Origin: Candidatus Epulonipiscium fishelsonii
GTDB lineage: Bacteria; Bacillota; Clostridia; Lachnospirales; Cellulosilyticaceae
Direction of reading: 5' to 3'
DNA length: 64,000 nucleotides
NCBI GenBank assembly: GCA_001983455.1
Contig: LJDB01000010.1
Span: 11,399 to 75,398, forward strand
This document shows, piece after piece, positions 6,331 to 60,892 of this stretch. The first letter of the stretch is position 1. Each line of letters opens with the position of its first letter. Under the pieces are notes generated by a model that worked only from the letters and a program-made list of their open reading frames with translations, did not search any database and had not been told where the DNA came from. Made by a program: the position numbers and the translations under genes.

Positions 6331-6366
6331 ATTTATAAACCCCCCTCAAATATAAAATTGTACTAC

Positions 6367-6684: not shown

Positions 6685-6699
6685 AATATTTACCCCCAT

Positions 6700-7149
6700 T
6701 TAATTATTTTTTACTAGTGCTTCTACTTCTTGTGGTGTTTTTGCTAACAAAAGAGCTTCTGTGAATTCATCATGCATAAGTCGTCTTGCAATTTGGCTCA
6801 GAATAGATATATGATGGTTTTCTGTATCATTTTCAGGCACAGCTATTACAAATGCCATTTTTACTGGCTCATCATCCAAAGACTCCCATTCAATATCATT
6901 AGTGAATTTTACTATAATAAGTGCAGCACTTGTTACAGAGTTTACTTTTGCATGAGGGATTGCTAGGTTATGCCCAAATCCTGTAGAGTCTAAATTTTCA
7001 CGAGCCCAAAGTCCATTTTCAAAATCTTGGGCATTGGTAGTAATATTTTTTTCAAATGCAATTTTGGAAATTGCCCGAAAAGCTTCACCTTTAGTGGATG
7101 CTTCTACATTAAATATAATGTAATCAGGTTTCAATAACTCATTAATCAT
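6700..7149 (-). CDS. PTS EIIA component (Fru/Mtl type)
   Basis: Start moved to ATG at 7149 (MINELLKPDY) behind GAGGAG. Motif GFGHNLAIPHAK carries the phosphorylatable His. Confidence 0.8.
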   Translation of the reverse strand: MINELLKPDYIIFNVEASTKGEAFRAISKIAFEKNITTNAQDFENGLWARENLDSTGFGHNLAIPHAKVNSVTSAALIIVKFTNDIEWESLDDEPVKMAFVIAVPENDTENHHISILSQIARRLMHDEFTEALLLAKTPQEVEALVKNN

Positions 7150-7210
7150 ATTTATTCTCCTCACTTTTTTTATTTTAAAAGGAACGTAGGTATTCCTCTT
7201 AATTTTGTCA

Positions 7211-9880: not shown

Positions 9881-9889
9881 AAGATCCCC

Positions 9890-11635
9890 CTAGTTTTTAA
9901 CTATTGCTCTAATAATTTTAATTTCTTCTTTATCAATGGGCTTAATTTTGTATATTTTGCAACTTTCAGGCACTATAAAAGTTTCAGCATAATGTACTAC
10001 TAAAGGATTAAAGGAATTATCTAAGCTTTCAACTAGTGCTTCTTTACCCTCAATTAAATTTAAAACATTTACACTTCCTTGAGTTTCAATAATAATTTCA
10101 TTTTTAATAGTATATCTTTTTGTTTCGATTGCTTGTGTACCATGTAGGCCAGTTTTTTCAATCTTAACATTCTCATTTTCCGTAATGTTTTCAAAGTGAT
10201 TTACTAAATTCTCATACACCCATTTTGTGTCTCTATCAAAGTCCAATACTTCTTTGCCATGATTCACATGGATTGGTCTTGGTTTGCCATCAAAATTAAC
10301 TCTACCCCAATCCCATAATTTAAACGTAAAAATATATGGCGTAGCAGAAATTTCCAAAACCATTGAATTGCTTCCAGAACAATGTATTGTTCCAGCTGGA
10401 ATTAAGAAATGGTCATGTTTTTTAGCAGCAATTTTATTTATATATTTGCTGTCATCAAAAGGTGTTCCGTCTGCTTGAGATTTATTTAAAGCCTCAATAA
10501 ATTCTTCCTTATCAATGCCTTCTTTAAATCCAAGGTATACTACGGCATCTTCGCCAGTATCAAGCATATAATAACTTTCATCTTGGGTGTAATGCATACC
10601 AAACTGTTCTTGGATATATGAAGTTATTGGATGAACTTGCAAACTTAAGTTTCCACCTTGCATAGTGTCCAAAAAATCAAATCTGATTGGAAACTCAGCA
10701 CCATACCTTGCATAAACATTGGGTCCTAATAAATTTTTTGGTTCTCTAAAAACAATGTTTATTGAGGGAACTTCAATAAACTCATCGCCATATTGTAAAT
10801 AAATGCTGTTTTCTTCGGGGACTCCATCAAAACTCCAGGCATAATTTTCACTGTTTTGATCAAGGTTACATACTTCTTTCATCCACTGGCCACCCCAAAC
10901 TCCTTTATCAAAATAAGGAACTAGTCTAAAAGGATTTGTAGATGCAAAGTTTAATCCATCAAGAAATGCTTTACCAGTAACCATTTTTGGAGTGTTTTGT
11001 ATATTAGTATCTAATAGATAGTCTATTTTGTTATATAGCTGTTTTTTTAATTTATCAGCCATTCGCCATTCAATAAAATATCCTCTTTTATATTTTCGTA
11101 ATATTTCTTCTGTATAATTGTCATCTCTCCAATTACCTATTTCATTGCTTCTATATCTTTGTTGAATTTCCCAGCGAGCAAGATCTGCATAAATTAATAA
11201 ATCACCTTCATGAATAATAGAAGCACCTGTACCATAAACTATAACTAGTCCATCGGTGTGAGCGATTTTTTCTCTACATTTGAAAATTTCTTCTTCTATA
11301 AAAAAATCTTTTAATGAATGCATTGTCATATATCCGAATACTCTATCATCTGTGATGTATTTATCTAAAACACTATTCATTTCTTTTACCGTCATTGCAC
11401 AATCATCGGAATTAATAATTAATGTAGGATTTAGTGGATTTATTATTCCTTCCATAACTTCTTCATATCTAACTCCAGGATACATTTCTATAGTTAACAC
11501 TTTTTTTTCTCTTAAATTGTATTTGAGTTCATTTACAATTTTATCATATCCTTTAAATAAATCAGCACTAGAATAACCTGATACTGTAATTTTAGGAAAT
11601 GGATTATATTGTGATTTAAAATTTAAGTAACTCAT
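9890..11635 (-). CDS. Type I phosphomannose-isomerase-like cupin protein with N-terminal extension
   Basis: 581 aa. LSLQVHP and a downstream cupin segment (IPAGTIHCSG) resemble class I PMI. First gene of the GH38/PTS operon. Confidence 0.5.
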   Translation of the reverse strand: MSYLNFKSQYNPFPKITVSGYSSADLFKGYDKIVNELKYNLREKKVLTIEMYPGVRYEEVMEGIINPLNPTLIINSDDCAMTVKEMNSVLDKYITDDRVFGYMTMHSLKDFFIEEEIFKCREKIAHTDGLVIVYGTGASIIHEGDLLIYADLARWEIQQRYRSNEIGNWRDDNYTEEILRKYKRGYFIEWRMADKLKKQLYNKIDYLLDTNIQNTPKMVTGKAFLDGLNFASTNPFRLVPYFDKGVWGGQWMKEVCNLDQNSENYAWSFDGVPEENSIYLQYGDEFIEVPSINIVFREPKNLLGPNVYARYGAEFPIRFDFLDTMQGGNLSLQVHPITSYIQEQFGMHYTQDESYYMLDTGEDAVVYLGFKEGIDKEEFIEALNKSQADGTPFDDSKYINKIAAKKHDHFLIPAGTIHCSGSNSMVLEISATPYIFTFKLWDWGRVNFDGKPRPIHVNHGKEVLDFDRDTKWVYENLVNHFENITENENVKIEKTGLHGTQAIETKRYTIKNEIIIETQGSVNVLNLIEGKEALVESLDNSFNPLVVHYAETFIVPESCKIYKIKPIDKEEIKIIRAIVKN

Positions 11636-13671: not shown

Positions 13672-13960
13672 ACATCACATCCAAGCGATAAAAACCCATT
13701 GTCTATTTGGACGCATTTCATTTCCAAAAGTTCCTTGTTCTTCTGCATCCACCAAAAGAGTATTAAGCCTAAATCTAAGTATTTTTTACCAATTTAAATT
13801 TTAAAACAATAAAATATTTGACTAGTAGGGCTGATAAATTTAAAAAATAACTCTACATCCTTCACTAGTGTATTCCTCAAAATTCCAGATACATATAAAT
13901 GCTTATCTTTTTTTAATAATATTTATTAGTATAATGAATATTTATGCAAAGAATAACTCT

Positions 13961-14380
13961 GTTATCTGTGATAAAGGGTTTAGAATTAAAGGATTTAGGA
14001 GTAAAGGGAGTAAATCTGTTATACGTGATAAGGAGAAAAGGCTACAGATCTTTTCTTTTTACATGTAAGATATAAATTGTGGTTAAAAAGTTTATTATAC
14101 GTGATAAAGGATTTGGGAGTAAAGGGAGTAAATCTAGTATACGTGATAAAGGATTTGGGAGTAAAGGGAGTAAATTTGTTATACGTGATAAGGAGAAAAA
14201 GCTACAGGTCTTTTCTTTTTATACGTGATAAGGAGAAAAGGCTACAGGTCTTTTCTTTTTACATGTAAGATATGAATTGTGGTTAACAGGTCTTTTCTTT
14301 TTACATGTAAGATATGAATTGTGGTTAAAAAGTTTATTATACGTGATAAAGGATTTGGGAGTAAAGGGATAAATCAAGCT
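13961..14380. repeat. Mosaic tandem array of ~41-nt modules, each beginning TTATACGTGATAA
   Basis: Module A (GGATTTGGGAGTAAAGGGAGTAAATCT) x4. Module B (GGAGAAAAGGCTACAGGTCTTTTCTTTTT) x3 plus a partial. Module C (ACATGTAAGATATGAATTGTGGTTAA) x3. Read directly from the sequence. Confidence 0.9.
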
Positions 14381-14430
14381 AAGGCTAAGACCGTAGTTTT
14401 CACTTTAGTTTAAAACATATTTAATTTTTT

Positions 14431-14547
14431 TAATTCATGATAACGGAAAAAACGTTTTGAGTTTTTTTGGTTATTCGTGATAATAGAAAAAGCGTTTTGA
14501 GTTTTTTTGTTATTCGTGACAATAGAAAAAGCATTTTGAGTTTTTTT
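14431..14547. repeat. Three tandem ~39-nt repeats
   Basis: Three consecutive units of TTATTCGTGATAATAGAAAAAGCGTTTTGAGTTTTTTTG with few substitutions. Confidence 0.9.
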
Positions 14548-14550
14548 ATT

Positions 14551-14670
14551 ATGGGTTGTTAACTAGCTGTTACTTATTTTTTCACGTCTGCTCTACTACT
14601 AATTTTTTCACCTATTGGCTACTTATTTTTCGTGACTACTCTGCTACTTGTTTTTTTCACATGGGTTAAC
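14551..14670. repeat. Four ~25-nt repeats bracketed by ATGGGTT(GT)TAAC
   Basis: Unit GCT.TACT..TTTTTTCAC occurs four times between ATGGGTTGTTAAC (14551) and ATGGGTTAAC (14661). Confidence 0.8.
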
Positions 14671-14973: not shown

Positions 14974-15678
14974 ATGGAATACATCTTAACTACAAACAAT
15001 TTGTGCAAAAACTTTAAAAAACAAAAAGCGAATGATAATATTAATATTTCCATTCGCAAAAATAGTATTTATGGTTTGCTTGGGCCAAATGGTGCGGGCA
15101 AATCCACATTGCTTAAAATGATTACGGGAATGTTAAATCCCACTTCTGGCCAGATTTATTTTAATGAAAAACCTTTAGAGCGTAGCGATTTAGTAAATAT
15201 AGGCTCACTTATTGAAAGTCCAGCCATCTATGAAAACCTAACAGCTCATGAAAACTTAAAGGTCAGAGCGTTGTTGTATAATTTACCAAATAGCCGTATT
15301 GACGAAGTATTAGAAATTGTGAATTTAAAAAATACTGGTAAGAAAAAATCTGGGCAGTTTTCTTTGGGTATGAAACAACGACTTGGGATTGCGATGGCAC
15401 TTTTAAACAACCCTAAACTACTTATTTTAGATGAACCAACCAATGGACTTGACCCGCTTGGCATACAAGATTTGCGAGAACTTATTTTGTCATTTCCTAA
15501 AAAAGCTATCACAGTCATTTTGTCATCTCATATCTTATCCGAGGTGGAGCAAATAGCTGAAGATATTGGAATTATTGCAAATGGCAAATTGGGGTATCAG
15601 GAGCACATATCTCATGATGTAGACCTTGAAAGTCTATTTATGGATGTAGTAAGAAAGTCAGGTGGTTATGATGTATAG
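14974..15678 (+). CDS. ABC transporter ATP-binding protein, lantibiotic-protection (LanF) type
   Basis: Walker A GPNGAGKST, signature SLGMKQRLGIA, Walker B LLILDEP. ATG at 14974 preferred over the TTG at 14965. Confidence 0.8.
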   Translation: MEYILTTNNLCKNFKKQKANDNINISIRKNSIYGLLGPNGAGKSTLLKMITGMLNPTSGQIYFNEKPLERSDLVNIGSLIESPAIYENLTAHENLKVRALLYNLPNSRIDEVLEIVNLKNTGKKKSGQFSLGMKQRLGIAMALLNNPKLLILDEPTNGLDPLGIQDLRELILSFPKKAITVILSSHILSEVEQIAEDIGIIANGKLGYQEHISHDVDLESLFMDVVRKSGGYDV

Positions 15679-16393
15679 CTTAGTTAAATCTAATTTTATA
15701 AAACAAAGACGTACATTCTCTAAAAAACTTTTATTTATTGCACCTATAACACCAATGGTGCTTTCTGTTTTACTTTTGCAAGGAAATTATTTTATAGAAA
15801 ATTCATGTAATTGGTGGTATGCTTTTATACTTCCAGCATCAATATTTATAATTGTTGGCTTTAACATATCTAGGGAACGAAAGAAAAATCGTCACGGACT
15901 TTTTTCTATTTGTGCAGACAAAAGAAAACTATGGGTTTCAGCTGTTTTAACAAATACAATAAGTCTACTGATTTTAAACCTTGGTTTCTTTATTTGTATT
16001 ACGATATGTATTTATATTCTTGGAATAGCTGACTTAAGAGTAGGTAAAAATTTATTAGCTAGTTTTTTATTATTTATAACATTTTCATGGCAAATACCTT
16101 TATTTATGTTTATTGCTGAAAAGACAGGTGCGTTCGTGACTATTTTTATTGGGATGGTTCTTAATATGGTTGGCATTTTCTTTGCTCCAAGCAACTTATG
16201 GTACATTCCTTTTGCAATTCCATCACGACTTATGTGTCCTGTGATTGGTACTATGCCAAATGGGTTGCCTGTGGAACCAGATAGTATCCTTAACGATTCT
16301 TCAGTTGTGCTTATAGGAGTTGTAATTACAATAATATTATACTTCATTATAACAATTTTAACTACTTTGTGGTATAACAAATTGGAGGCTTAA
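15668..16393 (+). CDS. ABC-2 permease, LanE/MutE-like
   Basis: ~241 aa, six predicted TM helices. Overlaps the ATPase stop. First of two paralogous permeases in the F-E-G order. Confidence 0.6.
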   Translation: MMYSLVKSNFIKQRRTFSKKLLFIAPITPMVLSVLLLQGNYFIENSCNWWYAFILPASIFIIVGFNISRERKKNRHGLFSICADKRKLWVSAVLTNTISLLILNLGFFICITICIYILGIADLRVGKNLLASFLLFITFSWQIPLFMFIAEKTGAFVTIFIGMVLNMVGIFFAPSNLWYIPFAIPSRLMCPVIGTMPNGLPVEPDSILNDSSVVLIGVVITIILYFIITILTTLWYNKLEA

Positions 16394-16394
16394 T

Positions 16395-17129
16395 ATGAAA
16401 ACTAATATAAAATCTGAAATTTATAGGTTTATACATTCACCTTTACTACCACTACACATAATAGTTCCTATTTTAGGTTCATTTATATTTGTAGCTTATT
16501 TTGCTACATCCAATTGGAGTGAAGAAGGCAGTGTATCAGCTTTTATACAAGCTCTATCAGTAACATTTCCTGTGCTTATAGGAATAATTATGGGTTTGTC
16601 TTGTGATTTTGAGCAAAATGCTGGAGGGTTTCAGATAATGCTTACTACGAAAAGTTCAAAACTTGTACCACATATCAGCAAAATAATAGTTCTTCTTATT
16701 TTAGGTTTAATATCTGCAATTTTAGCGCTTGGCTTGTTTTATATAGGTTTTTATTTTTTTAATCACACAAGTTTTAGTGCTTGGTTTTTCATACAAACAG
16801 CAATTTTTATGTTTATAAGTATGATTCCACTATATCTTCTTTCATATGTAATAAGCTTTTTGTACGGCAAAGGCATGAGCATAAGTATTGGGATTGTAGG
16901 TGGAATGGTATCAGCACTACTTTTGACAGGTCTTGGTGACAATAATTGGTTTTATACTCCTTGGGGGCTTGCTGCTCGCTTGTCGTTATTCCCTTTTATA
17001 AGAGATGTTGAAAACAATACTAGTGAAATGAATTGGGGTATTATTTCGCTACTTATATTTACAGCGATACTAACCATCTTGTTCATAGTAATTTTCAGAA
17101 AATGGGAGGGCAAAAGAATAGAAGACTAG
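16395..17129 (+). CDS. ABC-2 permease, LanG/MutG-like
   Basis: 244 aa, six predicted TM helices. Starts 1 nt after the previous stop. Confidence 0.6.
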   Translation: MKTNIKSEIYRFIHSPLLPLHIIVPILGSFIFVAYFATSNWSEEGSVSAFIQALSVTFPVLIGIIMGLSCDFEQNAGGFQIMLTTKSSKLVPHISKIIVLLILGLISAILALGLFYIGFYFFNHTSFSAWFFIQTAIFMFISMIPLYLLSYVISFLYGKGMSISIGIVGGMVSALLLTGLGDNNWFYTPWGLAARLSLFPFIRDVENNTSEMNWGIISLLIFTAILTILFIVIFRKWEGKRIED

Positions 17130-17150
17130 GAGAAATGAATTGAATATTAG

Positions 17151-17184
17151 AAAAGGCAAAGCCATGTAGCTTTGCCTTTTTTTA
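17151..17184. terminator. Bidirectional terminator between the ABC operon and rpoC
   Basis: AAAAGGCAAAGC / GCTTTGCCTTTT 12-bp stem, loop CATGTA, with T and A runs on both sides. Confidence 0.75.
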
Positions 17185-17188
17185 CAAA

Positions 17189-19377
17189 TTAGTTATCTTG
17201 AGTGACAACTTCAATTTTTCTATATCTATCCATTCCAGTACCTGCTGGAATAAGTTTACCAATAATAACATTTTCTTTAAGACCAATTAGTGGGTCAACT
17301 TTTCCTTTAATAGCAGCCTCGGTAAGAACTCTAGTAGTTTCTTGGAAAGAAGCAGCTGATAGGAATGATTCTGTAGCAAGAGATGCTTTAGTTATACCTA
17401 GTAAAGTATGTTTTCCTTCAGCAGGTGCCATACCTTTTTCAATCATTTCTTCATTAATTTGATCAAAATCAAGTACATCCACTAAACTTCCAGGAAGTAA
17501 ATTTGTATCTCCATTTTCTTCAATCTTAACTTTTTTAAGCATTTGACGAACAATTACTTCAATGTGCTTGTCATTTATATCAACCCCTTGAAGTCGATAT
17601 ACTCGTTGCACTTCTTGCAACATATAATCTTGAACTCCTCTAATACCTTTAATTTTAAGAATGTCATGAGGATTTATACTACCTTCTGTAAGCTCATCTC
17701 CAGCTTTAATAAAGTCTCCATCCATAACTTTAATTCTTGAACCATAAGGAATAAGATAAACTCTTGAATCATCAAGGGTATTATTTGCAATAGTAATTTC
17801 ACGTTTTTTCTTAGCTTCAGTAATAGTTACATATCCTTCAATTTCTGTTATAATTGCAAGACCTTTAGGTTTACGAGCCTCAAATAACTCTTCGATACGT
17901 GGAAGCCCTTGCGTAATATCGTCTCCTGCAATACCACCCGTATGGAATGTACGCATTGTAAGCTGTGTTCCTGGCTCACCAATGGATTGAGCTGCAATAA
18001 TTCCAACAGATTCACCTTCACGAACTTCGTTTCCAGATGACATATTTGCACCGTAACATTTTACACAAACTCCAACTTTTGATCTGCAAGATAAAGCATT
18101 TCTAATCTTAACTGTTTCAATTCCAATTCCTTCAATATATTCAGCTATTTTAGGTGAAATCATTGTATCAACTGGAACAATTACTTCCCCTGTTTCAGGA
18201 TGCACTACTGCTTCTGCTGCAAATCTTCCAGAAAGACGCTCATTCAATGGTTCAATCATTTCTGTGCCGTCTTTTACAGCTTTAACCCACATTCCAGGAA
18301 TTTCGTTTTTAGTATTGTTGTGACAACAATCTTTTTCTCTTATTATAACGTCTTGAGAAACGTCAACTAGCCTACGAGTAAGATATCCTGAGTCAGCAGT
18401 TTTTAATGCAGTATCGGCCAAACCTTTACGAGCTCCATGGGCAGAGTTAAAGAACTCTAGTACAGTAAGTCCTTCACGGAAATTTGCCTTAATTGGAAGT
18501 TCTAGTGTTTTTCCAGTTGGAGAAGACATCAGTCCCCTCATTCCAGCAAGCTGTTTAATTTGGTTATTTGAACCACGGGCACCAGAGTGTGCCATCATAT
18601 AAATGTTGTTATATTTTCCAAGTCCAGACAATAACGCTTCAGTAATTTTATCATTTGCAATGTTCCATGCTTGAATAACTTTGGTATATCGTTCGTCATC
18701 AGTCATTAGTCCACGTCTAAATAATTTTGTTACTTTATCAATGGATTGTTCTGCTTCAAGTAAATACTCACCTTTTTTAGCTGGAATAACCATATCAGAA
18801 ACAGAAACTGTCAAAGCACCACGAGTGGAATATTCAAATCCTAGGTCTTTGATATTATCTAGTAATATAGCTGTTTTAGTAGCTCCATGTTCATTTATAC
18901 ATCTTTTAATAATTTTTCCTAGCTCTTTTTTGCCCACCAAGAAGTCTATTTCATATTTTCTTGCAGGTAATTCATCGTTTTTACGTCTTTCCTCATTTTC
19001 AGCATGTTCTTTAGCTCTGTCAACAAATCCTAAATCTTGAGGAATTCTTTCATTAAATATAATTCGTCCTACGGTAATTTCTTCTCTTTTATACACTTCA
19101 CCATTAATTGTTCTACGAACTTGAATTCTAGCATGCAGTGTAATTTCTTTGTTTGCATACGCAAGCATCGCTTCCATTTCACTTTTAAAACATTTGCCTT
19201 CTCCAATTTCGCCTTCTTTGTCAAGAGTCAAGTAATATGTTCCAAGAACCATATCTTGAGAAGGAACAGCAACAGGAGCTCCATCAGACGGTTTTAGCAA
19301 GTTGTTTGGTGCTAAAAGCAAAAATCTACATTCTGCTTGTGCTTCAACAGATAAAGGTACGTGCACTGCCATTTGAT
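17189..19377 (-). CDS. rpoC: RNA polymerase beta-prime subunit, exon 2 (begins AT CAA ATG GCA GTG CAC = (D)QMAVH)
   Basis: 729 codons of conserved beta-prime sequence (trigger loop and bridge helix regions). Joining to exon 1 restores NADFDGDQMAVH in frame. Confidence 0.9.
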
Positions 19378-19460
19378 ATATGGATAGGTAACCATTTGAA
19401 ATTATCTCCAGGTTTTCCCCCCATCAGAACCGTACATGAGACTTTCATCTCATACGGCTC
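19378..19460 (-). ncRNA. Group II intron domains V and VI
   Basis: GAGCCGUAUGAGAUGAAAGUCUCAUGUACGGUUC is a 34-nt domain V with the AGC triad and a GAAA tetraloop. AUGGGGGG pairs with CCU(A)UCCAU to give domain VI with a bulged branch-point A. Confidence 0.9.
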
Positions 19461-19481
19461 GCCAACAATAATATTAACTAT

Positions 19482-21333
19482 TTATATAGTATTAATTTCT
19501 AAGCTTTCCCTAAGTTTATTGATTTTTATAATTTGTTTGTTATCTAAGTTAAGCGTTTCCATATATTCTTTAATAGTATCAATATGTGTAGCATATAGTA
19601 ATTTATGAACATTTGTTGTTACCCACATAAGATTGCTGCACTCATTTCCTCCACCTTTAATACGAGGTTTGATATGATGGCATTCCATCATATGTTTATT
19701 AAGTGGTTCTTGCGTTATAGCACATTTCCCACGTTGCCCATAAATGAGTGCTAATTTGTTGTTCAGTAAATCTACACTGTCATCCCACTTGTTACGCATT
19801 ATGAATGTAATTAAGTGGTCATAACCTTTTATACTATTGTGTGTGTATTGTCTACCATTAGGTGTGTAATTACACATATTTTGGTTAAATACTTTCACTC
19901 TTGCATATCTTACCCCGTGAACAGGGAAAAGGGTTACTGATGCAACAGTTCTAATCTTACTATGATACTTTCCGTATATGGCTAAATATGCTTTACTTTT
20001 ATTAGGTTTATTACTTAGATGATTTCTCAATCTTATATCAAAGGATTTCATAACGACATGGTTAATTTCTGCCATATCCCTAGAAACTAGACTAGGGTAG
20101 CTGATTTGTAATATTGATGTACACCTAAAATCATTGAATTAAGTTTTTGCATCTGTTTTGGTGTAGTATCTTTTTGTACCTCTTTAATTTGATTTTTGAG
20201 GTCACAAATTACATTTTTCTTAGCCTTATCTGTCATTTGAGTTCTACATGTGTATTTACGATTTTTTGATTTACCACTATCACTGTATGCTTTAAGTTTG
20301 AAACCTAGAAATTCACTATGTTTCTTTCTTAAGTTTGTGATTTATCTTGACAGAGTTCTAGGTGCAATCTCTTATGCAACCAATTAGTAGTTCGTTTGTA
20401 AACGATACTTGCTGTTTTATGGTCTTTACAAAAGATTTTAAAGTCATCTGCATATCGTACTATCCACATTTCTTTCACTTCGGAATAATTCCTGAGTGAT
20501 GCATATTTGTTTGACTGGTCTATTCTACCATCTTCTCTAACTTGCTTGTAGTCATAATCGGTTTTAAAAGTCTCCCATTGGTCACTTACCCACCAATCCA
20601 ACTCATTAAGCACTACATTAGACAATAATGGAGAGATAATACCTCCTTGTAGTGTACCTTTTGTTTGTATACCTACTCCAACAACTTCACTTTTAAGAAT
20701 TTTGCTAATAACTGTAATTAGGTTCTTATCTTGTATGCCCAGATTCCATAGTTGTTTAAGCAACTTTCCATGATTAATGTTGTCAAAGAAATCTTTAATG
20801 TCTATATCCACAACATAATGTAGTTTGCTTAAATTGACTAATGATTGGCATCTAGCTAGTGCATGGCTAGTTCCTCTGTTAGGACGAAAACCATAGCTAT
20901 GTGGGTGAAATTGTGCCTCAAGTATAGGTTCGATAACTTGCTTAATACATTGTTGTACGATTCTATCTTGTACGCATGGTATTCCTAGCGGTCTATTCTT
21001 ACCATTTGATTTAGGTATCTCAACTCTCCTCACCTTTTTAGGTCTGTAATCTCTAATAAGAGATCTTATAAATTTCACAAATCTGTCGGTCGGGAAATTG
21101 TCATAATATTTCAAAGTGACTTTATCCACTCCACATGTTTCGCTTCCTTTATTTCCTTTTAGGTTACGGTAAGCAAGTAGGATATTTCTTTCATCTTCGA
21201 TATATTTTATTAAATCGTTGAATTTGAATCCCTTTTTTGCTTTAGTGTACAATTCGTCAAATATGCTTTGCATTTCGTAGTACTCATTATTCCTTATCAA
21301 TTGTCTCTTTAGGGTTTGCCTATTCAAAGTCAA
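19482..21333 (-). pseudogene. Intron-encoded RT / maturase (domain X) / HNH protein, disrupted by two frameshifts
   Basis: Frame A 21333-20329 holds the RT domains (YADD) and a TTG start. Frame B ~20340-20087 reads TNLRKKHSEFLGFKL...GVHQYYKSATLV*. Frame C 20075-19482 holds the rest of X plus HNH (CHHIKPRIKGG...NLMWVTTNVH). Confidence 0.7.
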
Positions 21334-21811
21334 TCTACCTCCTTATACAGGATTGAGATTTCTTTTAGTCAATACGAGAACCTTTGATATATAATACTTT
21401 ATTAATATAAACATTTTTCTTAGTTAAATATTACTGTCTAAGGACTATCCCTCCACTTACATTACATAAGTATCTTTCTTAATGCGTCACTATTAAGACT
21501 TTCGGTACTGTGTCCTCGCTCAAATTGGATTAAGATGATTTCATTCTATTATAAGAACTTATACATCATATACCTTTATATCGATTACAGTTTATCTTGG
21601 TATATCCAATCTTTCCACGTTCCATTAGAACTATCTGTTCATATAGGGTTAGGTCTTGCCTATGAGCCTGTTAGCTTGATAGCACCTATAATGCTATAAG
21701 GTTTTTCATAACGGAGAGTTTTACTAAACCTCACTAACCATACTTGGTTGTATCCCTTTGCATTTCTACAAAGTCTTCGTCTAGACTCGTACATTCAGCA
21801 ATTCGCCAGTT

Positions 21812-21856
21812 GCTTATTCGTGATAACGGATTTAGTCACGTTGTTTCTAAATCTGT
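21812..21856. repeat. Copy of the dispersed hairpin element inside the intron 5' region
   Basis: GCTTATTCGTGATA + ACGGATTTAG / TCACGTTGTTT / CTAAATCTGT. The first 23 nt are 22/23 identical to 40358-40380. Confidence 0.85.
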
Positions 21857-22129
21857 TATTTGCAACATTCTAACCATACCTATTTTATAGACTTCCAGCC
21901 TATCATATGCAACCACGGACTAGATGATTTTTCGTTTATTACTTAATTTACGGCATATTTTAGCTGTCTTCACCGAGCTTCAGACCCTTTCATTCAACTG
22001 TGAATTACTTTCGCCTGTCGGAGTATTAAAGGGAGCATTTCCGAGCGTTACTTCTTCATTCTACTCTCTCGTTCTAACAGTTGTAAACTCTTTTAACGAC
22101 TGAGTTTACAGGTATCTTTTCAATACCTA

Positions 22130-23542
<1,413 letters not shown>

Positions 23543-26500
23543 TTATATTTCTGTATCTCCTTCTAAAAATTCACTCTCTTCATAATCATCATCAGGAAAA
23601 TCTTCTTCTTCAAAATCCTCTGGGAATTCTTCTTCTTCCTCTTCAAATTCTGCGATACTCTCTTCATCTAGTGTAACTTCGTGGTATCCCTCTCCCTCGG
23701 TATACTCATTACTTCCAACCATGTCGTTCATATCATCCATGCTTACTGCTATTCCTGTGCCGTCTTCAATAGTTTCTCTTATTTCAATTTCTTCATCTTC
23801 GGTCATAACTCTAATATCTAAGCCTAGTGATTGCAACTCTTTCAATAAAACTTTAAAAGACTCTGGAATTCCTGGTTCAGGAATATTTTCTCCCTTAACA
23901 ATTGCCTCATATGTTTTTACACGGCCAACAACATCATCTGATTTAATAGTTAAAATCTCTTGCAAAGTATAAGCCGCCCCATATGCTTCAAGAGCCCAAA
24001 CTTCCATTTCTCCAAATCTTTGCCCACCAAATTGAGCTTTTCCTCCAAGAGGTTGTTGAGTAATTGTAGCATATGGGCCAGTTGAACGAGCATGCATTTT
24101 ATCGTCAACTAAATGGTGCAATTTCAAGTAGTGCATATATCCAACTGTTACAGGATTATCAAAAAACTCACCGCTTCTTCCATCTCTTAGATGTATAGTT
24201 CCTGTTCTATCCAATGGAACCCCTTCCCATTCTGCTCTATGGTCAAGATTGTCTTCAAGATATTCCAAAGCATCAGGTTTAAGTTTATCTGTCCATTTTT
24301 CTTTAAAGTCTTCCCAATCATTGTTAACATAATCATTTGCCATCTCTAGGGTTTGCATTATATCACGTTCATTTGCTCCATCAAACACTGGTGTTGCAAC
24401 TTTAAATCCTAAAGCTTTTGCTGCAAGTCCCAAATGGACTTCCAAAACCTGCCCAATATTCATACGAGAAGGAACACCTAGTGGATTAAGAACGATATCT
24501 AGTGGTCTACCATTTGGTAAAAACGGCATATCTTCTTCAGGTAATACTCTAGAAATAACCCCTTTGTTTCCATGACGGCCTGCCATCTTGTCTCCAACAG
24601 AGATTTTTCTTTTTTGAGCGATATAACAACGTACCATTCTATTAACTCCAGGTGAAAGCTCATCACCATTTTCTCTAGTAAATACTTTAATATCCACTAT
24701 AATTCCAGCCTCACCATGTGGAACTCGTAATGAAGTATCCCGCACTTCTCTAACCTTTTCACCAAATATTGCTCTAAGCAAGCGTTCTTCTGCTGTAAGT
24801 TCTGTTTCTCCTTTTGGCGTAACTCTTCCAACCAAAATGTCTCCAGCACGAACTTCTGCTCCAATACGAATAATTCCTCTTTCGTCCAAATCTCTTAGTG
24901 CATCGTCACCAACATTTGGGATATCTCTAGTAATTTCTTCTGGACCAACTTTTGTATCTCTAGATTCAACTTCATATTCTTCAATATGAACAGAAGTGTA
25001 AATATCTTCTCTTACTAGTCTTTCACTCAAAAGAATTGCATCCTCAAAGTTATATCCTTCCCAAGTCATAAAGCCAATTAAAGGATTTTGTCCTAGTGCC
25101 AATTCTCCATTATCAGTGGATGGACCATCTGCCAATATTTCTCCAGCCTTTACAAAATCACCTTTTGATACTAATGGTCGCTGATTTATACATGTTCCTT
25201 GGTTACTTCTAGTAAATTTTGTTAGTTTATAAGAATCTTTATGACCAGTTTCCGTTTTGACTATAATTTCTTTTGAAGTAACTTTTTCAATAATACCTTC
25301 ATTCTTAGAAATTATTAAAACTCCAGAATCCATAGCTGCCTTTGATTCCATACCAGTACCAACAATTGGACTATTTGTACGAATTAGTGGCACTGCCTGA
25401 CGTTGCATGTTTGCTCCCATAAGTGCACGGTTAGCATCATCGTTTTCCAAGAAAGGTATCATTGCTGTTGCAACAGATACAATTTGCTTTGAAGAAATAT
25501 CCATGTGGTCAATTTGTGTATAATCAAATTCTAAAATGTCTTCTTTTCGTCTTGCTGTTACTTTTTTATTTACAAACTCTCTATTTTCATTTAAAGGTTC
25601 TGTAGCTTGACAAATTGTATAGTTTTCTTCTTCATCAGCTGTTATATATCTGAATTCATCTGTAACTTTCATTACAATTTGGCCATCTGCATTAACTTCT
25701 TTTTTTACAACTCTATATGGTGCTTCAATAAATCCATACTCGTTTATACGAGCAAAAGTTGCTAGTGAATTTATTAACCCGATGTTTGGACCTTCAGGTG
25801 TTTCAATTGGACACATTCTACCATAATGTGAATAGTGAACGTCACGCACTTCAAATCCTGCACGTTCTCTTGAAAGACCACCAGGTCCTAAAGCTGATAA
25901 TCTTCTTTTATGAGTAAGTTCCGCTAGTGGATTGTTTTGATCCATAAATTGAGAAAGCTGAGAACTACCAAAGAATTCCTTTATAGCAGCAGTAACAGGT
26001 CTAATATTAATAAAAGTTTGTGGACTTATTGTATCTGCGTCTTGTGTTGCCATACGTTCACGTACAACTCTTTCCATCCTTGAAAGCCCTATTCTAAACT
26101 GGTTTTGCAACAATTCTCCAACTGCACGAATACGACGATTTCCTAGGTGGTCAATATCATCTTTGTTTCCCATGCTATAGGTTAAATGAATATTATAATT
26201 GATTGAAGCAAAAATATCTTCTTTAGTAATATGCTTTGGTATAAGGTCGTTAATTCTAAGTTTAAGTTGCTCAATTATTTCTTCAGGTTCATCATAATTC
26301 TCTATAATCTCTTCAAGTACTGGGAAATAAACATTATCTTTAATTCCTAATTCTTCGGGTGTCACACCTAACGTATCAAATTCTAACACTTTTGTTATAT
26401 CTACCATTTTATTAGTAAGTATTTTTACTGGTCGTTCTATGTCTTCAACCATTAACAATACATAATCTGTCCCAGTGTTTTGAATAGCATTGGCAATTTC

Positions 26501-31797: not shown

Positions 31798-33138
31798 TTA
31801 AGACGGTAATTCTGTTTCGTTCAAAGCCTTCATTACATAGTACATATTTACTAATTCTTCTGCTCTATTTTTCCAAGTATGTTTCTCACTTACCAACTTA
31901 TATGCATTTTCAATTATAGGCTGTGCTAAATCATAATTTTCTGTATAAAATCTCACTTTTTCCACTAGCTCATTTAAATTATTTGCATCATAGTAAATGA
32001 TATTTACACCATCTATAAGCTCATCATTTGCAAAACTGTTCCTATTGCTTATTACCAACGTTCTATTTAACATTGCATTAAATACTCTTTCACTACCTCC
32101 ATTTTTTACAGGATACAAATCTTGCAGTAAAATTTTGCTCTCAGCAATTTTTTCAATTATTTCAGGATACGGTAGTTCTCCATTATCTACAAAATTAGGA
32201 TATTCATTAAAAAACTTATTTTTACTATTTAACCAAAATTCTACTTTTATGTCATTATCCAATAAAGTTTTAACTACTTTCTGCCTATAGTGCATTCTTC
32301 TATGCCAATCTAGAATAATATATACTTGTTCAAATAATATTTGTTTTAAGTTTGGAATGTTCATAGCTGATTGTATATCTTCGTTTTCTAATATGACCTC
32401 TTCTATACATTGTTCCATTGTTTTATTAAAATCATTACATGCTTTATTATGAACTTCTTTAATAAATTTTTTAAATATAGTTATTTCAGATTCCTTAATC
32501 TTCCCTTTTTCTATGAATTTATTTGCTGCATTCTCAGGTAAGTCTGGTCCTGATAAATTAGCAGTCATGATTACATCTATATTTTTTTTGTTATTCATAA
32601 TAATGGATTTACTTCCAGCTTGCATTAAATGCGTTAATATTCTAGTGTTATCAATATATTTTTCATATGAATTCAAAAAACTTTCGGCAAACATTCCTAT
32701 AAATACATTGTTCTTAGGGGTATATTTCAAAAACATTTTAAAGCGAGCTGGATTATCAAGTAATACTGTGCCGACAATGACATTATTATCTGAAAAAAAT
32801 TTAAACAAAGAAGGTACAAGTGCTAAAGTTAAGCAGAAATTGATAACATAATCTACTTTTATTAAACTTTTAGGCACTCCATATTGATCAAAATCTGTTG
32901 TAGTTTGGTCCATATCTTTAAAAACAATGCTTGCTCCATCTGAATTAATAACATAATCCAAGTTTATAGAATCTTTATGAACTGCATATTGATCAAAATC
33001 TAGTATTGTTACTATATGACCCATATTTTTAAAAGTAATTTCTAGCTCATCTATAAACTTGCCTAATATCTGTCTATTATTTTTTGAAGTGTATTTAAAA
33101 AGTAATATGTTTATTTTATCATCTGTTTTTTGTGTCAA
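31798..33138 (-). CDS. CgeB-like / GT1-type glycosyltransferase, paralog 1
   Basis: 446 aa, TTG start behind GGAGGG. The C-terminal ~180 aa (..GGSERVFNAMLNRTLVISNRN..EKHTWKNRAEEL) resemble the CgeB / glycosyltransferase group 1 C-terminal fold. Confidence 0.6.
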   Translation of the reverse strand: MTQKTDDKINILLFKYTSKNNRQILGKFIDELEITFKNMGHIVTILDFDQYAVHKDSINLDYVINSDGASIVFKDMDQTTTDFDQYGVPKSLIKVDYVINFCLTLALVPSLFKFFSDNNVIVGTVLLDNPARFKMFLKYTPKNNVFIGMFAESFLNSYEKYIDNTRILTHLMQAGSKSIIMNNKKNIDVIMTANLSGPDLPENAANKFIEKGKIKESEITIFKKFIKEVHNKACNDFNKTMEQCIEEVILENEDIQSAMNIPNLKQILFEQVYIILDWHRRMHYRQKVVKTLLDNDIKVEFWLNSKNKFFNEYPNFVDNGELPYPEIIEKIAESKILLQDLYPVKNGGSERVFNAMLNRTLVISNRNSFANDELIDGVNIIYYDANNLNELVEKVRFYTENYDLAQPIIENAYKLVSEKHTWKNRAEELVNMYYVMKALNETELPS

Positions 33139-33191
33139 AGAAAATTCCCTCCTAAACTTTCATTCGTTTCATATTGCAAATTCCCAAACTT

Positions 33192-34535: not shown

Positions 34536-34597
34536 AGAAAATCTCCTCCTAAACTTCCACTTGTTTTATATTGTAAAAAAAATTTTCATATAAACTT

Positions 34598-37453: not shown

Positions 37454-37468
37454 ATTGTTTATCCTTTT

Positions 37469-38446: not shown

Positions 38447-38457
38447 CTTTTATTCTC

Positions 38458-43940: not shown

Positions 43941-45485
43941 CTATGCAGTAGCAAATACAGAACTTTGACTATTCCATTCATTCATCATTTGTTCCATAGC
44001 AGTAAATTGACTGTAATAATATTCTTCACGAGACTCATATCTGCTCTGATATCTTTCTATGTCAGTTGCAAGAGTACGGAATTGGTCATCAAATACCTTA
44101 TCGTTATAAAAACTGCCAAAGCTATTTAACGATGTAGTAGCAATTTGGTCACTAATTTTGTCATATAAGGTGTCCATTACTCCATCTGTTTTATTTCCGT
44201 CCGCATCAACTTCACCTGCAAAAGCGGCTATTACTTTATCAGCATCAGAACTTATAGCAGCTTTTAGTTTTTCCTCATCGATATGCAATTTTCCTTTTTC
44301 TTGCCAATTCCCCGTTGTAATACCCATTGAAATTAAATCTTCGTTACTTCCTAAAGCACCTCTTAATGTATCCACAAACTCTTGTAAATGTGGATCATCC
44401 TCAAATAAATGTGTTTCAATTTTTTCATTCCAAAGCTCAATTTCATAATCAGACATTTCGGCCATTTCTTCCTCGGTCAAAGGCATATATTCTTCTTTTG
44501 AATAAGGTACATCAAGTTTGCTATTTAAATCTTCAATAAGTTTATTGTACTCGTCAACAAAACCTACAATTCTATCATATATTGCACCAACGTCTTGTTC
44601 AGACGAAATTAATATCTTGGAATCTCCATCTGTTGCTGTAACACCATTTTTTTCATCATATGCTCCAGTAGTTTGTTTAAAAGTCATATTCAGTCCATTT
44701 ACTGTAACAGTATTTGAAGTTGATTCATAATCATAGCCATTATATTTGTAGTGAGCATTTTTTCCTTGATTAGTACCTACAGTGTAGGTGCCGTCAACGT
44801 CAGATACATTATTTTTGCCAAATAATGCTTCTAAGGCATCTACATTAGCGTTACCCTCTTGACTAGCTGAAATATTTATATCAATGTTTCCAGTTTCTTT
44901 ATTAGAAATCATAAATCTACCTTGATCAAAGTTTACATTTAAACTATCATCGACTTCTTTGATTTTATTAGCAATGTCTTCCATTGTATCAGAGCCCAAA
45001 ATCTCAACTTCTTCATTACCAATATTTATAGTATATGTTGCTGATTCATCCGTTGTATACGCACTAATTTCAGATAATTTTGTATCTTTTGTAGCTAATT
45101 CCTTTGTTTCCTTACCAGTATTAGGATCTACTTTATATATTTGATCGGTATCTACTTGTGTATTTGTTGCAAGTTGCCCGATAATAATTTCATTTGTTCC
45201 ATCAGGAATGTCACTTCCTTCATGAAGGGTTAATGCATCTTCATTTGTGTTTATTATTGTTTCAGAATAAAATCCTCCATCATGTCTTAAGCTACCAATC
45301 TGATCTGTGTAGAAATTCATTAGAGTAGTATTCATTTCTTTCCATTTTTCTTCTTTTAATTCTAACAGCATTTCTTCTTTTTTTAAGTTATCTACTTTAG
45401 ATTTGTCGGTTGCAACCAGTGCTTTAACAATTGACTCGGTGTCTAACCCAGAAGTTAATCCTGTAAATCTTATTGTATCTGACAT
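43941..45485 (-). CDS. fliD: Flagellar filament cap protein FliD
   Basis: 514 aa. N-terminus IRFTGLTSGLDTESIVKALV and a conserved C-terminal coiled-coil. Confidence 0.9.
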   Translation of the reverse strand: MSDTIRFTGLTSGLDTESIVKALVATDKSKVDNLKKEEMLLELKEEKWKEMNTTLMNFYTDQIGSLRHDGGFYSETIINTNEDALTLHEGSDIPDGTNEIIIGQLATNTQVDTDQIYKVDPNTGKETKELATKDTKLSEISAYTTDESATYTINIGNEEVEILGSDTMEDIANKIKEVDDSLNVNFDQGRFMISNKETGNIDINISASQEGNANVDALEALFGKNNVSDVDGTYTVGTNQGKNAHYKYNGYDYESTSNTVTVNGLNMTFKQTTGAYDEKNGVTATDGDSKILISSEQDVGAIYDRIVGFVDEYNKLIEDLNSKLDVPYSKEEYMPLTEEEMAEMSDYEIELWNEKIETHLFEDDPHLQEFVDTLRGALGSNEDLISMGITTGNWQEKGKLHIDEEKLKAAISSDADKVIAAFAGEVDADGNKTDGVMDTLYDKISDQIATTSLNSFGSFYNDKVFDDQFRTLATDIERYQSRYESREEYYYSQFTAMEQMMNEWNSQSSVFATA

Positions 45486-57892: not shown

Positions 57893-60892
57893 CTATGCAA
57901 TAACTTCAAACTCAGTATCTCCTCGTTTTACTGGTGCAGACTGTTCTGGTTTTAATATAGGATTATATATTTTAGCATCCTGATATATTCCTTGCTTAAC
58001 ACTATATCCTATGTTTTTTAACATTGTGTCCAAATTACTTCCCTTTGTTTGGAGTCTCTTTGTTATTTCTGGAGTTTCTCCACTAACTTCATATGAAATC
58101 GCTTCATCAGTGATATTTAAATGGGCTACAACTGTACCCATAGACTTAGTGTCATAGCTTATTACAGCTTTTAGATCATTGTTTTGTTCAACTGATTGTT
58201 TATTTTTCTTGTTCATATAAAGATGTACTAGTTTTTGCTCACCGTTAATCATAAATGGTACTTGATATACTTCGTCTTGCTTTTGCAATTCTTTTTGAAT
58301 ATTTACCATTTCTTCCATCTGTTTGTGTTGCTTGTATTGATTGATATTACTTTCCATAACGGCAATTTCTTTTTCGGATGATGCTGTTTCTTTAATTTCT
58401 TCTAACATCTCTCGGATTTCTTCAAAATTATTTACTTCATTTTTGTGATCGGGGTTGCCTTCATTATAGTCTTTTAACATTTCACCATATAAATTTGGCT
58501 CATCAACCATTTTTTGAAGCCAATATATATTGTTTAAAGTTACTGGTATTTCTTTATCTTTCATAACGGATACAATTTCAGGGGAAACTTTTTTTGCTAT
58601 CTCAATTTTTTCTAAAACACTTTTTGGCAATGTATCTATACCTTCAAAATCTCCTAGTTCTTTTTTCACCTGGCTTTTTATGAACGGATAAATCATACTA
58701 CTTATTTTATCGTCAGATTTTAAGTTTAGTTGAGTGTTTTCTAGTACCTTTGATAAATTTACCAATTTTTCTGTTTCTATATTTGCTTGTTCTATCCTTA
58801 CTTTTGCTGTTTCAAGAGGCTGTTTAAACCCTTCTAATTCTCCAAAGCTATCATCAACCACTGTTTCTATATTAGTATTTTTCCCTGCATATTTAACAGC
58901 TTCTTGCAAGTTCTCTACATTTAAGTCAAAATTATTCTGTTGGATATACCCTATTACTTGCTCTTTATTTTTTTCCACTTTATCTAGTACTTGATATAGT
59001 CCTATTAATTCGTCTTTTTGTGACTTGGATAATTGTCCATTTTCTTCCAAAGCAACAATTGCTTCTGCCACAGATGTTTTAAGTTGGGGCATATTTTCTT
59101 TTTCAATAAATTCAAGTGTATTGTCCACTGTAGAGTAATATGGGTTTATTCCTTCTTTAATCATATTTGATGCTACATGCGGAGTTAATTCTAGTAAAAA
59201 TGTATTAAGTTTTTGAGAAATAACCGCTGCTTGCTCCATATTTTCAGGGGTCAACTCTTGATTGTTTAAAATAAGTGCTTCCGCTGCTTGTTTATTTATT
59301 TTATTAACTTCAAAATTGTTATTTTGCAAAAATTGTTCAATCTGACCTTTTACACTGCGTAGTCCTTCGCCAAAACGTTTTTCTGGTTCCAGTGCATTTT
59401 GATCATATTTAGATAATGCAACATTAAATTGCTCTAGTGTTGCTTCCTCTGATGTTTCAAGCTGAATTTCTATAGTTTGGGTAGGATGAAACTTCATTTG
59501 ATTTGTAGTTTCAATAACCTTTTCCAAAATTTGTTTGTTTTCTTCAGAGACTGGAACATTTGCCTTATTTAATGCTTCTGTGATTACTACATCTTCTATG
59601 GCAATTAATTCTTGTGCCACCTTGGAAAGTTCGGTGCTCTCTAGTGGCATCTTAGTACTAATGTTTCTTGCTGCTTCTACGTTTAGTTTTGCCCTAATTA
59701 TATTTATGTAATTTTTGACATCTTGAACTGTTTGTTGTTTATTAATATGTGATTTGTTAACATCGATACTTGGTGTGCTTATGTTTGCACCAACATTTGG
59801 TATATTGATATTTGGAGTATTAATATTTATATCAACATTTGGAGTACTGATATTTGGAATATTAACATTTGGAGCACTACCATTTATATCAACATTTGGC
59901 ATATTGATATTTGGAATATTAACATTTGGAGCACTACCATTTATATCAACATTTGGCATACTTATATTTGGAGTACTACCATTTGTACCAATATTTGGTA
60001 TGCTGATATTTGGAGTATTAACATTTGGCCTGCTGATATTTGGAGCCAAAATTTGCATTGTGTTCTGGTATAATATTGCTTTTAAATTATTGATATTTAT
60101 TTTAATATCTTTTTCCAGCAATTCTTCAATTTGCTCGTCTTTTATTTCAGACAAATCAGTTAAAAGTTTATTTATATCTTCTTGTGTATAATGTACCTGA
60201 TCATTTTTTATAAGAGGCTTTTTAGACACATCTATAGGCAGTTCCTCTTCATTTAACAAATCACTTGGAGACAAGTTATCAATTTGCTCTTTTATGTTTT
60301 GTATTTTTGAAATATTTTCCAATGTAACATCCTGACCAACTTTAAGCAATTTCTCTGTTGCCCACTGATTTTCTGGAGTTATTTCAATACTATTTAACCT
60401 TAAAACCTGATCTATCTCTTCCTTACTATATTCTGTTGGGTAACCTGTGCCTTTAAAACTTCCAAGGTACAAATTGGCTATATTTATTTCACCTTGCTCC
60501 TCCATAGCACATTTGTACATAGCATCTGTATGTTCTTTTAATTTGTTTACTTTATCTTTAAGTTGCAACTGTTGTTTTTCATTTAAAATTACTTCTTCTT
60601 TTTCTTGAATTTGCTCAAATTCTAAATATTTGTAAACATCATATTCCATCTCTCCAATGTCATATCCGTTTTGCTGAATATTTGAAATTTTTTCCTGTTC
60701 AAAATCAAATGTAGTCTCACCAAAATTGGTTTCTTTTTCATATGCAATTTGTTCCAAATCCTGCTGTTTGCTTGGTGCATATTTTGTCATTTCATATTCA
60801 AAATTAGAATTTCCCACTGATGAAGACTTTGATAATTTGGGATTTGTGTAAGTATATTGATTATATTTTGATGTAATTAAATTTTCAACCAT
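57893..60892 (-). CDS. Large flagellar-locus protein with central pentapeptide-type repeat and FliK-like C-terminal region (tentative)
   Basis: 999 aa. The C-terminal ~90 aa (LVHLYMN...GTVVAHLNITDEAISYEVSGETPEITKRLQTKGSNLDTMLKNIGYSV) follow the FliK C-terminal pattern. First gene behind a sigma-D-type promoter. Confidence 0.35.
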   Translation of the reverse strand: MVENLITSKYNQYTYTNPKLSKSSSVGNSNFEYEMTKYAPSKQQDLEQIAYEKETNFGETTFDFEQEKISNIQQNGYDIGEMEYDVYKYLEFEQIQEKEEVILNEKQQLQLKDKVNKLKEHTDAMYKCAMEEQGEINIANLYLGSFKGTGYPTEYSKEEIDQVLRLNSIEITPENQWATEKLLKVGQDVTLENISKIQNIKEQIDNLSPSDLLNEEELPIDVSKKPLIKNDQVHYTQEDINKLLTDLSEIKDEQIEELLEKDIKININNLKAILYQNTMQILAPNISRPNVNTPNISIPNIGTNGSTPNISMPNVDINGSAPNVNIPNINMPNVDINGSAPNVNIPNISTPNVDININTPNINIPNVGANISTPSIDVNKSHINKQQTVQDVKNYINIIRAKLNVEAARNISTKMPLESTELSKVAQELIAIEDVVITEALNKANVPVSEENKQILEKVIETTNQMKFHPTQTIEIQLETSEEATLEQFNVALSKYDQNALEPEKRFGEGLRSVKGQIEQFLQNNNFEVNKINKQAAEALILNNQELTPENMEQAAVISQKLNTFLLELTPHVASNMIKEGINPYYSTVDNTLEFIEKENMPQLKTSVAEAIVALEENGQLSKSQKDELIGLYQVLDKVEKNKEQVIGYIQQNNFDLNVENLQEAVKYAGKNTNIETVVDDSFGELEGFKQPLETAKVRIEQANIETEKLVNLSKVLENTQLNLKSDDKISSMIYPFIKSQVKKELGDFEGIDTLPKSVLEKIEIAKKVSPEIVSVMKDKEIPVTLNNIYWLQKMVDEPNLYGEMLKDYNEGNPDHKNEVNNFEEIREMLEEIKETASSEKEIAVMESNINQYKQHKQMEEMVNIQKELQKQDEVYQVPFMINGEQKLVHLYMNKKNKQSVEQNNDLKAVISYDTKSMGTVVAHLNITDEAISYEVSGETPEITKRLQTKGSNLDTMLKNIGYSVKQGIYQDAKIYNPILKPEQSAPVKRGDTEFEVIA
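59765..60055 (-). repeat. Coding tandem repeat: ~19 pentads P-N-[IV]-x-[IMT], including a 57-bp duplication
   Basis: Protein reads NISRPNVNTPNISIPNIGTNGSTPNISMPNVDINGSAPNVNIPNINMPNVDINGSAPNVNIPNISTPNVDININTPNINIPNVGANISTP. DNA 59849-59903 is repeated exactly at 59906-59960. Confidence 0.9.

Follow-up and report, generated by a model that had tools for sequence, protein, structure and literature searches.

A 64,000-nucleotide (nt) stretch of the genome of Candidatus Epulonipiscium fishelsonii, a giant gut bacterium of the Epulopiscium type (GenBank assembly GCA_001983455.1, contig LJDB01000010.1, positions 11,399 to 75,398; called the window here) carries an rpoC gene, for the β′ subunit of RNA polymerase, that is interrupted within the codons of its catalytic motif (NADFDG|D) by a group II intron of 2,763 nt (window 19378..22140, minus strand). 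The gene for the intron-encoded protein (IEP), a reverse transcriptase (RT)/maturase with an HNH region, does not form one continuous domain 4 open reading frame (ORF) and is spread over three frames with two premature stops. A true and very recent loss of the maturase gene, with splicing kept by maturase acting in trans from intact alleles on other chromosome copies, is the explanation toward which we lean. The sequences directly show the intron and its site, the two lesions, the intact ancestral ORF, the conserved ribozyme, and an exon junction that is in frame; the reality of the lesions in vivo, continued splicing, and the source of the maturase are what we infer.

The IEP gene is spread over three frames

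The first piece of the IEP gene ends in LELCQDKSQT followed by a stop codon at 20331-20329, has a Pfam RVT_1 match (E = 3.4e-33), and aligns with residues 1 to 333 of intact homologs. The continuation, ITNLRKKHSEFLGFKL...QYYKSATLV, lies in a frame that is open from 20341 and stops at 20089-20087, and it aligns with residues 334 to 417 of the same homologs. The third piece, LVSRDMAEINH...CHHIKPR...NVHKLLYATH..., runs from about 20090 to a stop codon at 19484-19482. A previous reading of the DNA without database searches (the sequence-only reading) had ended the RT frame at 20329, placed a continuation stopping at 20087 in another frame, and assigned the rest of domain X and the HNH motif to a third; all three placements hold. 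No further stops or indels occur in the downstream frames, and conceptual repair yields a protein of 617 residues. Because the joined pieces match intact group II intron proteins of 597 to 617 amino acids (aa) from end to end, the arrangement in three frames is not a product of chance.

The joined fragments are about 99% identical to the intact IEP of the sister locus described below (P0127), 97% identical to a second homolog (P0001), and 81% identical to a third (P0002). Thousands of group II RT/maturases matched the repaired protein, most of them at about 55% identity (Clostridium, Sarcina, Paraclostridium, and Priestia), and its RT part matched LtrA, TeI4h, GsI-IIC, and the Roseburia/Eubacterium maturases in the PDB with E values of 1e-36 to 1e-43. 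A search of the genome contig collection with the repaired protein returned no close relative, the best match being 55% identical.

Pfam returned no maturase-domain match for the IEP, and its HNH region (about 19593-19682, CHHIKPR...NVHKLL) had a weak Pfam HNH match of 17.5 bits (cut-off, 21.4; E = 0.0048). Some IEP homologs have a precomputed PF01844 hit, and the domain X/thumb and C-terminal HNH regions align over their full length with named group II RT/maturases. A conserved histidine of the HNH region is replaced by tyrosine in the window (19593-19595), a change that is derived and specific to the window when polarized against relatives. The earlier identification of an RT/maturase/HNH ORF belonging to a group II intron in an essential gene holds.

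Two indels separate the window from an intact sister locus

The sister locus (L079; GCA_001983515.1, LJHH01000040.1, 8,642 nt), from Candidatus Epulonipiscium fishelsonii / Epulopiscium sp. SCG-C06WGA-EpuloA1, extends from the end of rpoC exon 1 through the intron and exon 2 to three ABC-transporter genes that are also present in the window. It aligns to window positions 23722..15083 with 99.56% identity over 8.6 kb, and the differences consist of 26 substitutions and exactly two indels, both of which are the IEP frameshifts, as the sequence-only reading had proposed for an ORF frameshifted twice. The sister IEP ORF is intact, with 617 uninterrupted codons from a TTG start, and has itself acquired three derived amino acid changes. 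A 597-aa protein of the EpuloA1 genome named "group II intron reverse transcriptase/maturase" (ONI47746.1) falls in the cluster of P0001, and the NusG of the window falls in a 90%-identity cluster together with a named Candidatus Epulonipiscium protein. Since the ORF is intact in the sister's copy of this intron, which occupies the identical site, the damage in the window would be extremely recent.

Both lesions were placed by DNA alignment to three independent relatives. The first was aligned against the sister locus, two contigs from neighboring SRA runs (L005 and L089), and L001, an ENA metagenome contig of 38.7 kb in which a more distant intron with an intact ORF interrupts rpoC at this site and whose RpoC is 83% identical to that of the window. 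At this position the sister reads AATCACAAATCACA (in wider context, GATAAATCACAAATCACAAAC), a perfect AATCACA-AATCACA tandem. The second repeat unit is AATCACC in more distant relatives, and a C-to-A change common to the window and the sister perfected the 7-nt repeat prior to loss of the unit. At the second lesion, CTAGT occupies both 20091-20095 and 20086-20090, so that the window reads ACC-CTAGT-CTAGT-TTCTAGG where relatives read ACC-CTAGT-TTCTAGG. The net change of −2 nt accounts for the use of three frames. Neither indel lies in a homopolymer run, both lie at tandem repeats, and both have the appearance of classic slipped-strand (replication-slippage) events.

Frameshifts of this kind might be bypassed by programmed ribosomal frameshifting, or the fragments might function as a split protein, and an ATG does stand at the start of the third fragment, 12 nt past the second stop. 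A slippery heptamer is absent at both sites, however, and a TAA directly precedes the switch point in the second frame. The shifts are not shared by the relatives, all of which have one continuous ORF, and the middle piece of 84 codons lacks its own start at the 5′ end. We regard bypass or a split protein as extremely improbable.

The rpoC exons and the ribozyme appear constrained

Read from the joined exons, the splice site follows the first base of the codon for the second metal-binding Asp, at the rpoC junction NADFDG|D. The exon 1 ORF (22127..23506, minus strand) encodes the N-terminal 459 residues of RpoC and continues for a few junk codons after AAYNADFDG, crossing an exon-intron boundary that reads GGCG|GTGCGAC; the exon 2 ORF (17189..19372, minus strand) begins with MAVHVPLS. 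The sequence between the two rpoC ORFs starts with GTGCGACACG and ends with ...CCTATCCATAT. Removal of the intron in silico joins the exons in frame into an RpoC of 1,184 aa with one terminal stop.

It could be that this rpoC copy is dead and that a second, intron-less rpoC elsewhere makes β′, although nothing in favor of this was found in the visible 64 kb. Against this, the gene stands in a normal context, with an L10 leader, L10 (rplJ), L7/L12 (rplL), and rpoB upstream, its exons are open and join in frame, and the interrupted arrangement is retained in both the sister and L001. The exons differ from those of the sister by two synonymous and no nonsynonymous changes over 3.5 kb, with one of the synonymous changes in exon 2. 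A dead rpoC is therefore very improbable. The data contradict both programmed frameshifting and a dead rpoC: a slippery site is lacking, relatives do not share the shifts, and purifying selection acts on the exons.

The noncoding parts of the intron retain the features expected of a group II ribozyme. Its ends, GUGCG...CAUAU, fit the GUGYG / AY boundary rule with an in-frame exon junction. Rfam model RF02004 (group II domains 1 to 4) matched at 21884-22085 with 139.6 bits over model positions 1-201/201, far over the gathering score, and RF00029 (domains 5 and 6) matched over its full length at 19378-19462 with 69.2 bits (gathering score, 40), bearing out the earlier remark that the ribozyme core looks intact. 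The position of the bulged branch-point A satisfies the 7- to 8-nt rule for group II domain 6. Compared to the sister, the noncoding intron parts have two differences, both of them G-U versus G-C changes in predicted helices that keep the pairs. RNAalifold analysis of the window, sister, and L001 sequences predicted 184 pairs, with 13 compensatory double changes and 6 broken or gapped pairs. Identity to L001 is 88.1% in the 5′ ribozyme part, 82% in the 3′ part, 76% in the ORF, and 75 to 77% in the exons, and the ribozyme is thus better conserved than the rpoC exons in this comparison.

Candidate pairings of exon-binding sites 1 and 2 with intron-binding sites 1 and 2 (EBS1/EBS2-IBS1/IBS2), chosen by complementarity and duplex energy, all contain G-U pairs, as in CGUUAU at intron positions 428-433 opposite AUGGCG. 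A stronger duplex, at intron positions 457-466, sits in a hairpin stem that is itself backed by a compensatory change. By its boundaries, domains 1 to 3, domain 5, and domain 6, the element can be assigned to the group II intron family, and splicing activity is predicted. Rfam found no second group II intron in the 64-kb window. Both rpoC itself and the ribozyme appear to be under strong constraint, which suggests that splicing is required and ongoing.

Pfam-annotated RpoC homologs with 89 to 93% aa identity to the window RpoC have an uninterrupted NADFDGDQMAV and an intron-free site. Intron occupancy is therefore patchy, as expected of homing into a universally conserved target or of loss. 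In the literature, no report was found of a bacterial intron in the rpoC NADFDGD codons or of this intron in Epulopiscium. One paper credits Ca. E. viviparus with two group II introns and one RT and gives no locations for them.

Other candidates for an intron at this site were rejected. A scan of JGI metagenomes for the NADFDG|GTGCG junction gave nine matches, all of them chance occurrences in unrelated ORFs without group II RNA. Two short N-terminal RpoC homologs were also dismissed as intron cases: P0140 (contig L091), whose gene is cut by the contig end, and P0135 (L090), which is an overlapping or duplicated gene call. On L090, a JGI contig, the rpoC call at 6001-11033 consists of two genes, for 621 and 1,062 aa, that overlap. 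The first departs directly after NADFDGDQM, and N-terminal RpoC domains are present in both; the pair looks like a duplication or an assembly problem with no intron.

Mutation versus artefact

Both indels could be artefacts of whole-genome amplification or of consensus assembly, for example a mosaic of heterogeneous templates, in which case the true IEP would be the intact 617 codons. In favor of this, the intact sister locus agrees with the window at 99.7% of positions when only substitutions are counted, the frames beyond the shifts show no additional decay, and related data sets include obvious junk, such as adapter sequence at the end of L005. Exact-protein look-ups of the window's three ORF fragments, and of its ribosomal protein L10, found no other assembly on record, and the absence of the fragments elsewhere also fits an artefact. 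Opposing this are the nature and placement of the indels, which measure 7 and 5 nt at tandem repeats, unlike homopolymer errors, and are the sole indels in 8.6 kb, both inside the one gene that can be lost. By simple arithmetic, two indels placed at random in the 8.6-kb alignment would both hit the 1.85-kb ORF with a probability of about 0.05, and for the approximately 57 kb of coding sequence in the window this probability is far smaller.

The sequence-only reading had argued from the intactness of other long genes against general indel noise, and this holds for every gene checked. No split genes were found among those checked elsewhere in the 64-kb window, where about 50 other long ORFs are unbroken. 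Adjacent or overlapping ORF pairs were considered as split genes and proved to be separate, complete genes. In addition to the two-indel comparison with the sister, a related 1.8-kb contig (L078; 99% identical and reached via NusG and L11) has no indels relative to the window. Many thousand genome copies would also have provided many amplification templates, making a jackpot consensus error unlikely. An artefact deserves real weight, and we nonetheless consider it a rather unlikely source of the two lesions. If the damage were artefactual, an ordinary mobile intron would remain, at an unusual and apparently unreported site.

Variants and mobility of the element in relatives

Contigs from three neighboring SRA runs encode the same ORF at 97 to 98% identity, without the window's indels and with lesions of their own. 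In L089, codon 60 has changed from GGA to the stop codon TGA, L005 has deletions of 115 and 49 nt in the endonuclease part, and P0130 to P0134 are other internal-deletion variants of the IEP. The ratio of nonsynonymous to synonymous substitution rates (dN/dS) for the IEP is 0.04 versus L001 and 0.17 to 0.39 among close variants. As a separate observation, L005 and L089, although from different SRA runs, share an exact start at window position 21458 and end at 19422-19424, just past domain 5; these ends could reflect branching of the assembly graph at the borders of variants or repeats, or fragments with defined ends.

The more distant IEP P0002 is encoded identically on four contigs, with contig breaks at the intron ends, and the relative that encodes it has a second insertion site in the C-terminal part of fliD (L002, 1-3137; L003, 1-2809). 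This indicates that the element is multicopy and mobile in that relative. L002 links the rpoC exon 1 flank to the fliD 3′ flank through the intron and is probably a repeat-induced assembly chimera. The fliD gene of the window (43941..45485) is uninterrupted.

Source of the maturase

Domain X is needed for the maturase function of group II IEPs, and these proteins can act in trans. Trans-acting IEPs that serve ORF-less bacterial introns have been documented (PMC4424553), and polyploidy in Epulopiscium reaches more than 100,000 copies in some cells (PMC4789555). The sequence-only reading had reasonably supposed that, were the frameshifts real, splicing would rely on a maturase acting in trans, a host factor, or self-splicing. 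A sequence of events consistent with these precedents would begin with a mobile-type intron, carrying an RT-X-D-HNH gene in domain 4, lodged in the NADFDGD codons of rpoC. Loss of one 7-nt repeat unit and a 5-nt tandem duplication would then have inactivated the IEP very recently, in the lineage or in the dominant allele, leaving as product an RT stub of 334 aa that lacks the X/thumb (maturase) domain. With the ribozyme and exons untouched, the intron would still be excised as RNA and β′ still made, using maturase supplied in trans. The likeliest suppliers would be other chromosome copies, in the cell or the population, whose alleles of this intron are intact, with a paralog less likely; such alleles are perhaps the simplest source. 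This supply in trans would shield the IEP gene from selection, and its decay would be beginning.

The lesions could also be real and the maturase unneeded, with self-splicing in vivo or a host factor, as proposed for C.te.I1, making the IEP dispensable and subject to loss everywhere. Such a reading would accommodate the several different inactivating lesions in related samples, the greater conservation of the ribozyme than of the exons, and assemblies that pass through the intron in a way that suggests a single copy, and it has a precedent (PMC4424553). It sits poorly with the long-term IEP dN/dS of 0.04, a sign of strong selection until recently, and with the intact ORFs of the sister genome and L001. 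Moreover, most group II introns require a maturase at physiological Mg2+ concentrations. Maturase-free splicing is accordingly the kind of explanation that we find unlikely here.

Several points weigh against true loss of the maturase gene compensated by intact alleles. The intact IEP allele was seen in the sister single-cell genome and not in the window's own 64 kb, and the assemblies of the window and of the sister cross the intron without a break, suggesting the lack of a near-identical paralog or second copy. The lesions are known from one assembled consensus, in which real mutation versus consensus error has to be argued from the letters themselves. The name of the sister (SCG...WGA) denotes a whole-genome-amplified single cell, and the window assembly may also have been amplified in this way; such data can carry artefacts. 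The lack of extra stops beyond the frameshifts is compatible with a very recent event and also with an artefact. The Logan contigs are of low grade (L005 runs into Illumina adapter), and their lesions are no more than suggestive. Finally, a rise in dN/dS between very close genomes is expected anyway, as mildly harmful changes are not yet purged.

Other features of the window

Coordinates of the intron parts, lesions, and exons are collected in the table.

Table. Components of the interrupted rpoC gene and its intron, in window coordinates
Feature	Position	Strand	Description
rpoC exon 1	22141..23506	−	Terminates ...AAYNADFDG plus first base of Asp codon
5′ ribozyme part (domains 1 to 3 and start of domain 4)	21334..22140	−	Contains RF02004 match
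IEP fragment 1, RT domain	20329..21333	−	334 codons, TTG start, AGGAGG ribosome-binding site, premature TAA
Frameshift 1	20336..20343	−	7-nt deletion; single AATCACA in window versus tandem pair in sister
IEP fragment 2, end of RT and start of domain X (thumb)	20087..20341	−	ITNLRKK...QYYKSATLV, then stop; second frame
Frameshift 2	20086..20095	−	CTAGTCTAGT, 5-nt tandem duplication; single CTAGT in relatives
IEP fragment 3, remaining domain X, DNA-binding, and HNH	19482..20090	−	Third frame
Domain 5	19429..19462	−	34-nt hairpin, AGC triad, GAAA loop, 2-nt bulge (fold and RF00029)
Domain 6	19378..19426	−	Bulged A at 19385, 8 nt from 3′ splice site (fold and RF00029)
rpoC exon 2	17189..19377	−	Opens with last two bases of Asp codon, then QMAVHVPLS...

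Outside the intron, a 243-aa ORF at 15662-16393 (plus strand), between genes for an ABC ATPase and an ABC-2 permease, differs from the sister by seven nonsynonymous and two synonymous changes, whereas the differences in its neighbors are nearly all synonymous; this ORF may be fast evolving or diversifying. Intergenic blocks of imperfect 39- to 42-nt direct repeats lie at 13870-14630, and similar blocks have been described for the Epulopiscium type B genome (PMC10756260). Nested coding tandem repeats with periods of 15, 27, 42, 57, and 99 nt occur at 59789-60045, in the ORF for a 999-aa DUF6240 protein (57893..60892, minus strand).

A low-GC island (about 26%) at 31800-42500 looks like a flagellin-glycosylation locus. 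It contains three tandem paralogous glycosyltransferase-like genes of about 447 aa, a FlgN/FliT-like gene, and genes for cytidylyltransferase plus HAD, radical-SAM/SPASM, NeuB plus methyltransferase fusion, and MptE-like proteins, and fliD (43941..45485) follows it.

Comparison with known introns and significance

In its six-domain ribozyme, domain 4 ORF, GUGCG 5′ end, domain 5, and bulged A of domain 6, the intron resembles Ll.LtrB of Lactococcus lactis, and the repaired protein, with its RT domain, thumb/X, and HNH region, resembles IEPs of the RT-X-D-En type such as LtrA. Unlike mobile introns of the Ll.LtrB type, it sits in the most conserved motif of an essential gene, and its ORF is broken here. 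Housekeeping genes are an uncommon location for group II introns in bacteria, where degenerate IEP genes and ORF-less introns spliced in trans are known but rare (PMC4424553).

Parallels are also found among ORF-less introns and introns with degenerate IEPs that are spliced in trans in cyanobacteria (PMC4424553), including Thermosynechococcus (PMC2882425), where, as here, the ribozyme is intact, the intron's own protein gene does not work, and an outside maturase is expected. In the cyanobacterial cases the helpers are paralogous introns on the same chromosome, whereas the candidate helper here is the same locus in intact form on other copies of the genome, no paralog is seen in the 64-kb window, and decay has only just begun, with two indels. 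C.te.I1 of Clostridium tetani, which is ORF-less, has no IEP in the genome, and self-splices, shares with this intron a host of the Clostridia lineage and the possibility of maturase-independent splicing in a protein-coding gene. It differs in having no ORF remnant and in interrupting a surface-layer protein gene, in contrast to the nearly complete ORF in rpoC.

Group II introns of fungal, algal, and plant mitochondria and plastids (PMC4424553) offer a further likeness, in the housekeeping host gene, polyploid genome, sporadic and ongoing IEP loss, and splicing-only behavior. The differences are that the host here is a free bacterial cell, with no nucleus from which to import splicing factors, and that the ribozyme is not degenerate. 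As a tentative idea, about which we remain doubtful, this could be an organelle-like intron in a giant bacterium whose cells each contain tens of thousands of genomes, such that the ribozyme is fixed and selected while the maturase gene is shielded by trans-complementation between copies and is knocked out independently in different cells or populations. If true, a free-living bacterium would show a mobile retroelement at the outset of its conversion into a splicing-only intron.

The location of the intron in the Mg2+-binding motif of the only visible rpoC means that every RNA polymerase molecule would depend on splicing. If the damage is real, the locus would provide a natural experiment on how an intron can persist in an essential gene after losing its own helper, and on whether extreme polyploidy relaxes selection on such genes, as in organelles. 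Such an experiment would bear on how mobile introns turned into host-dependent introns.

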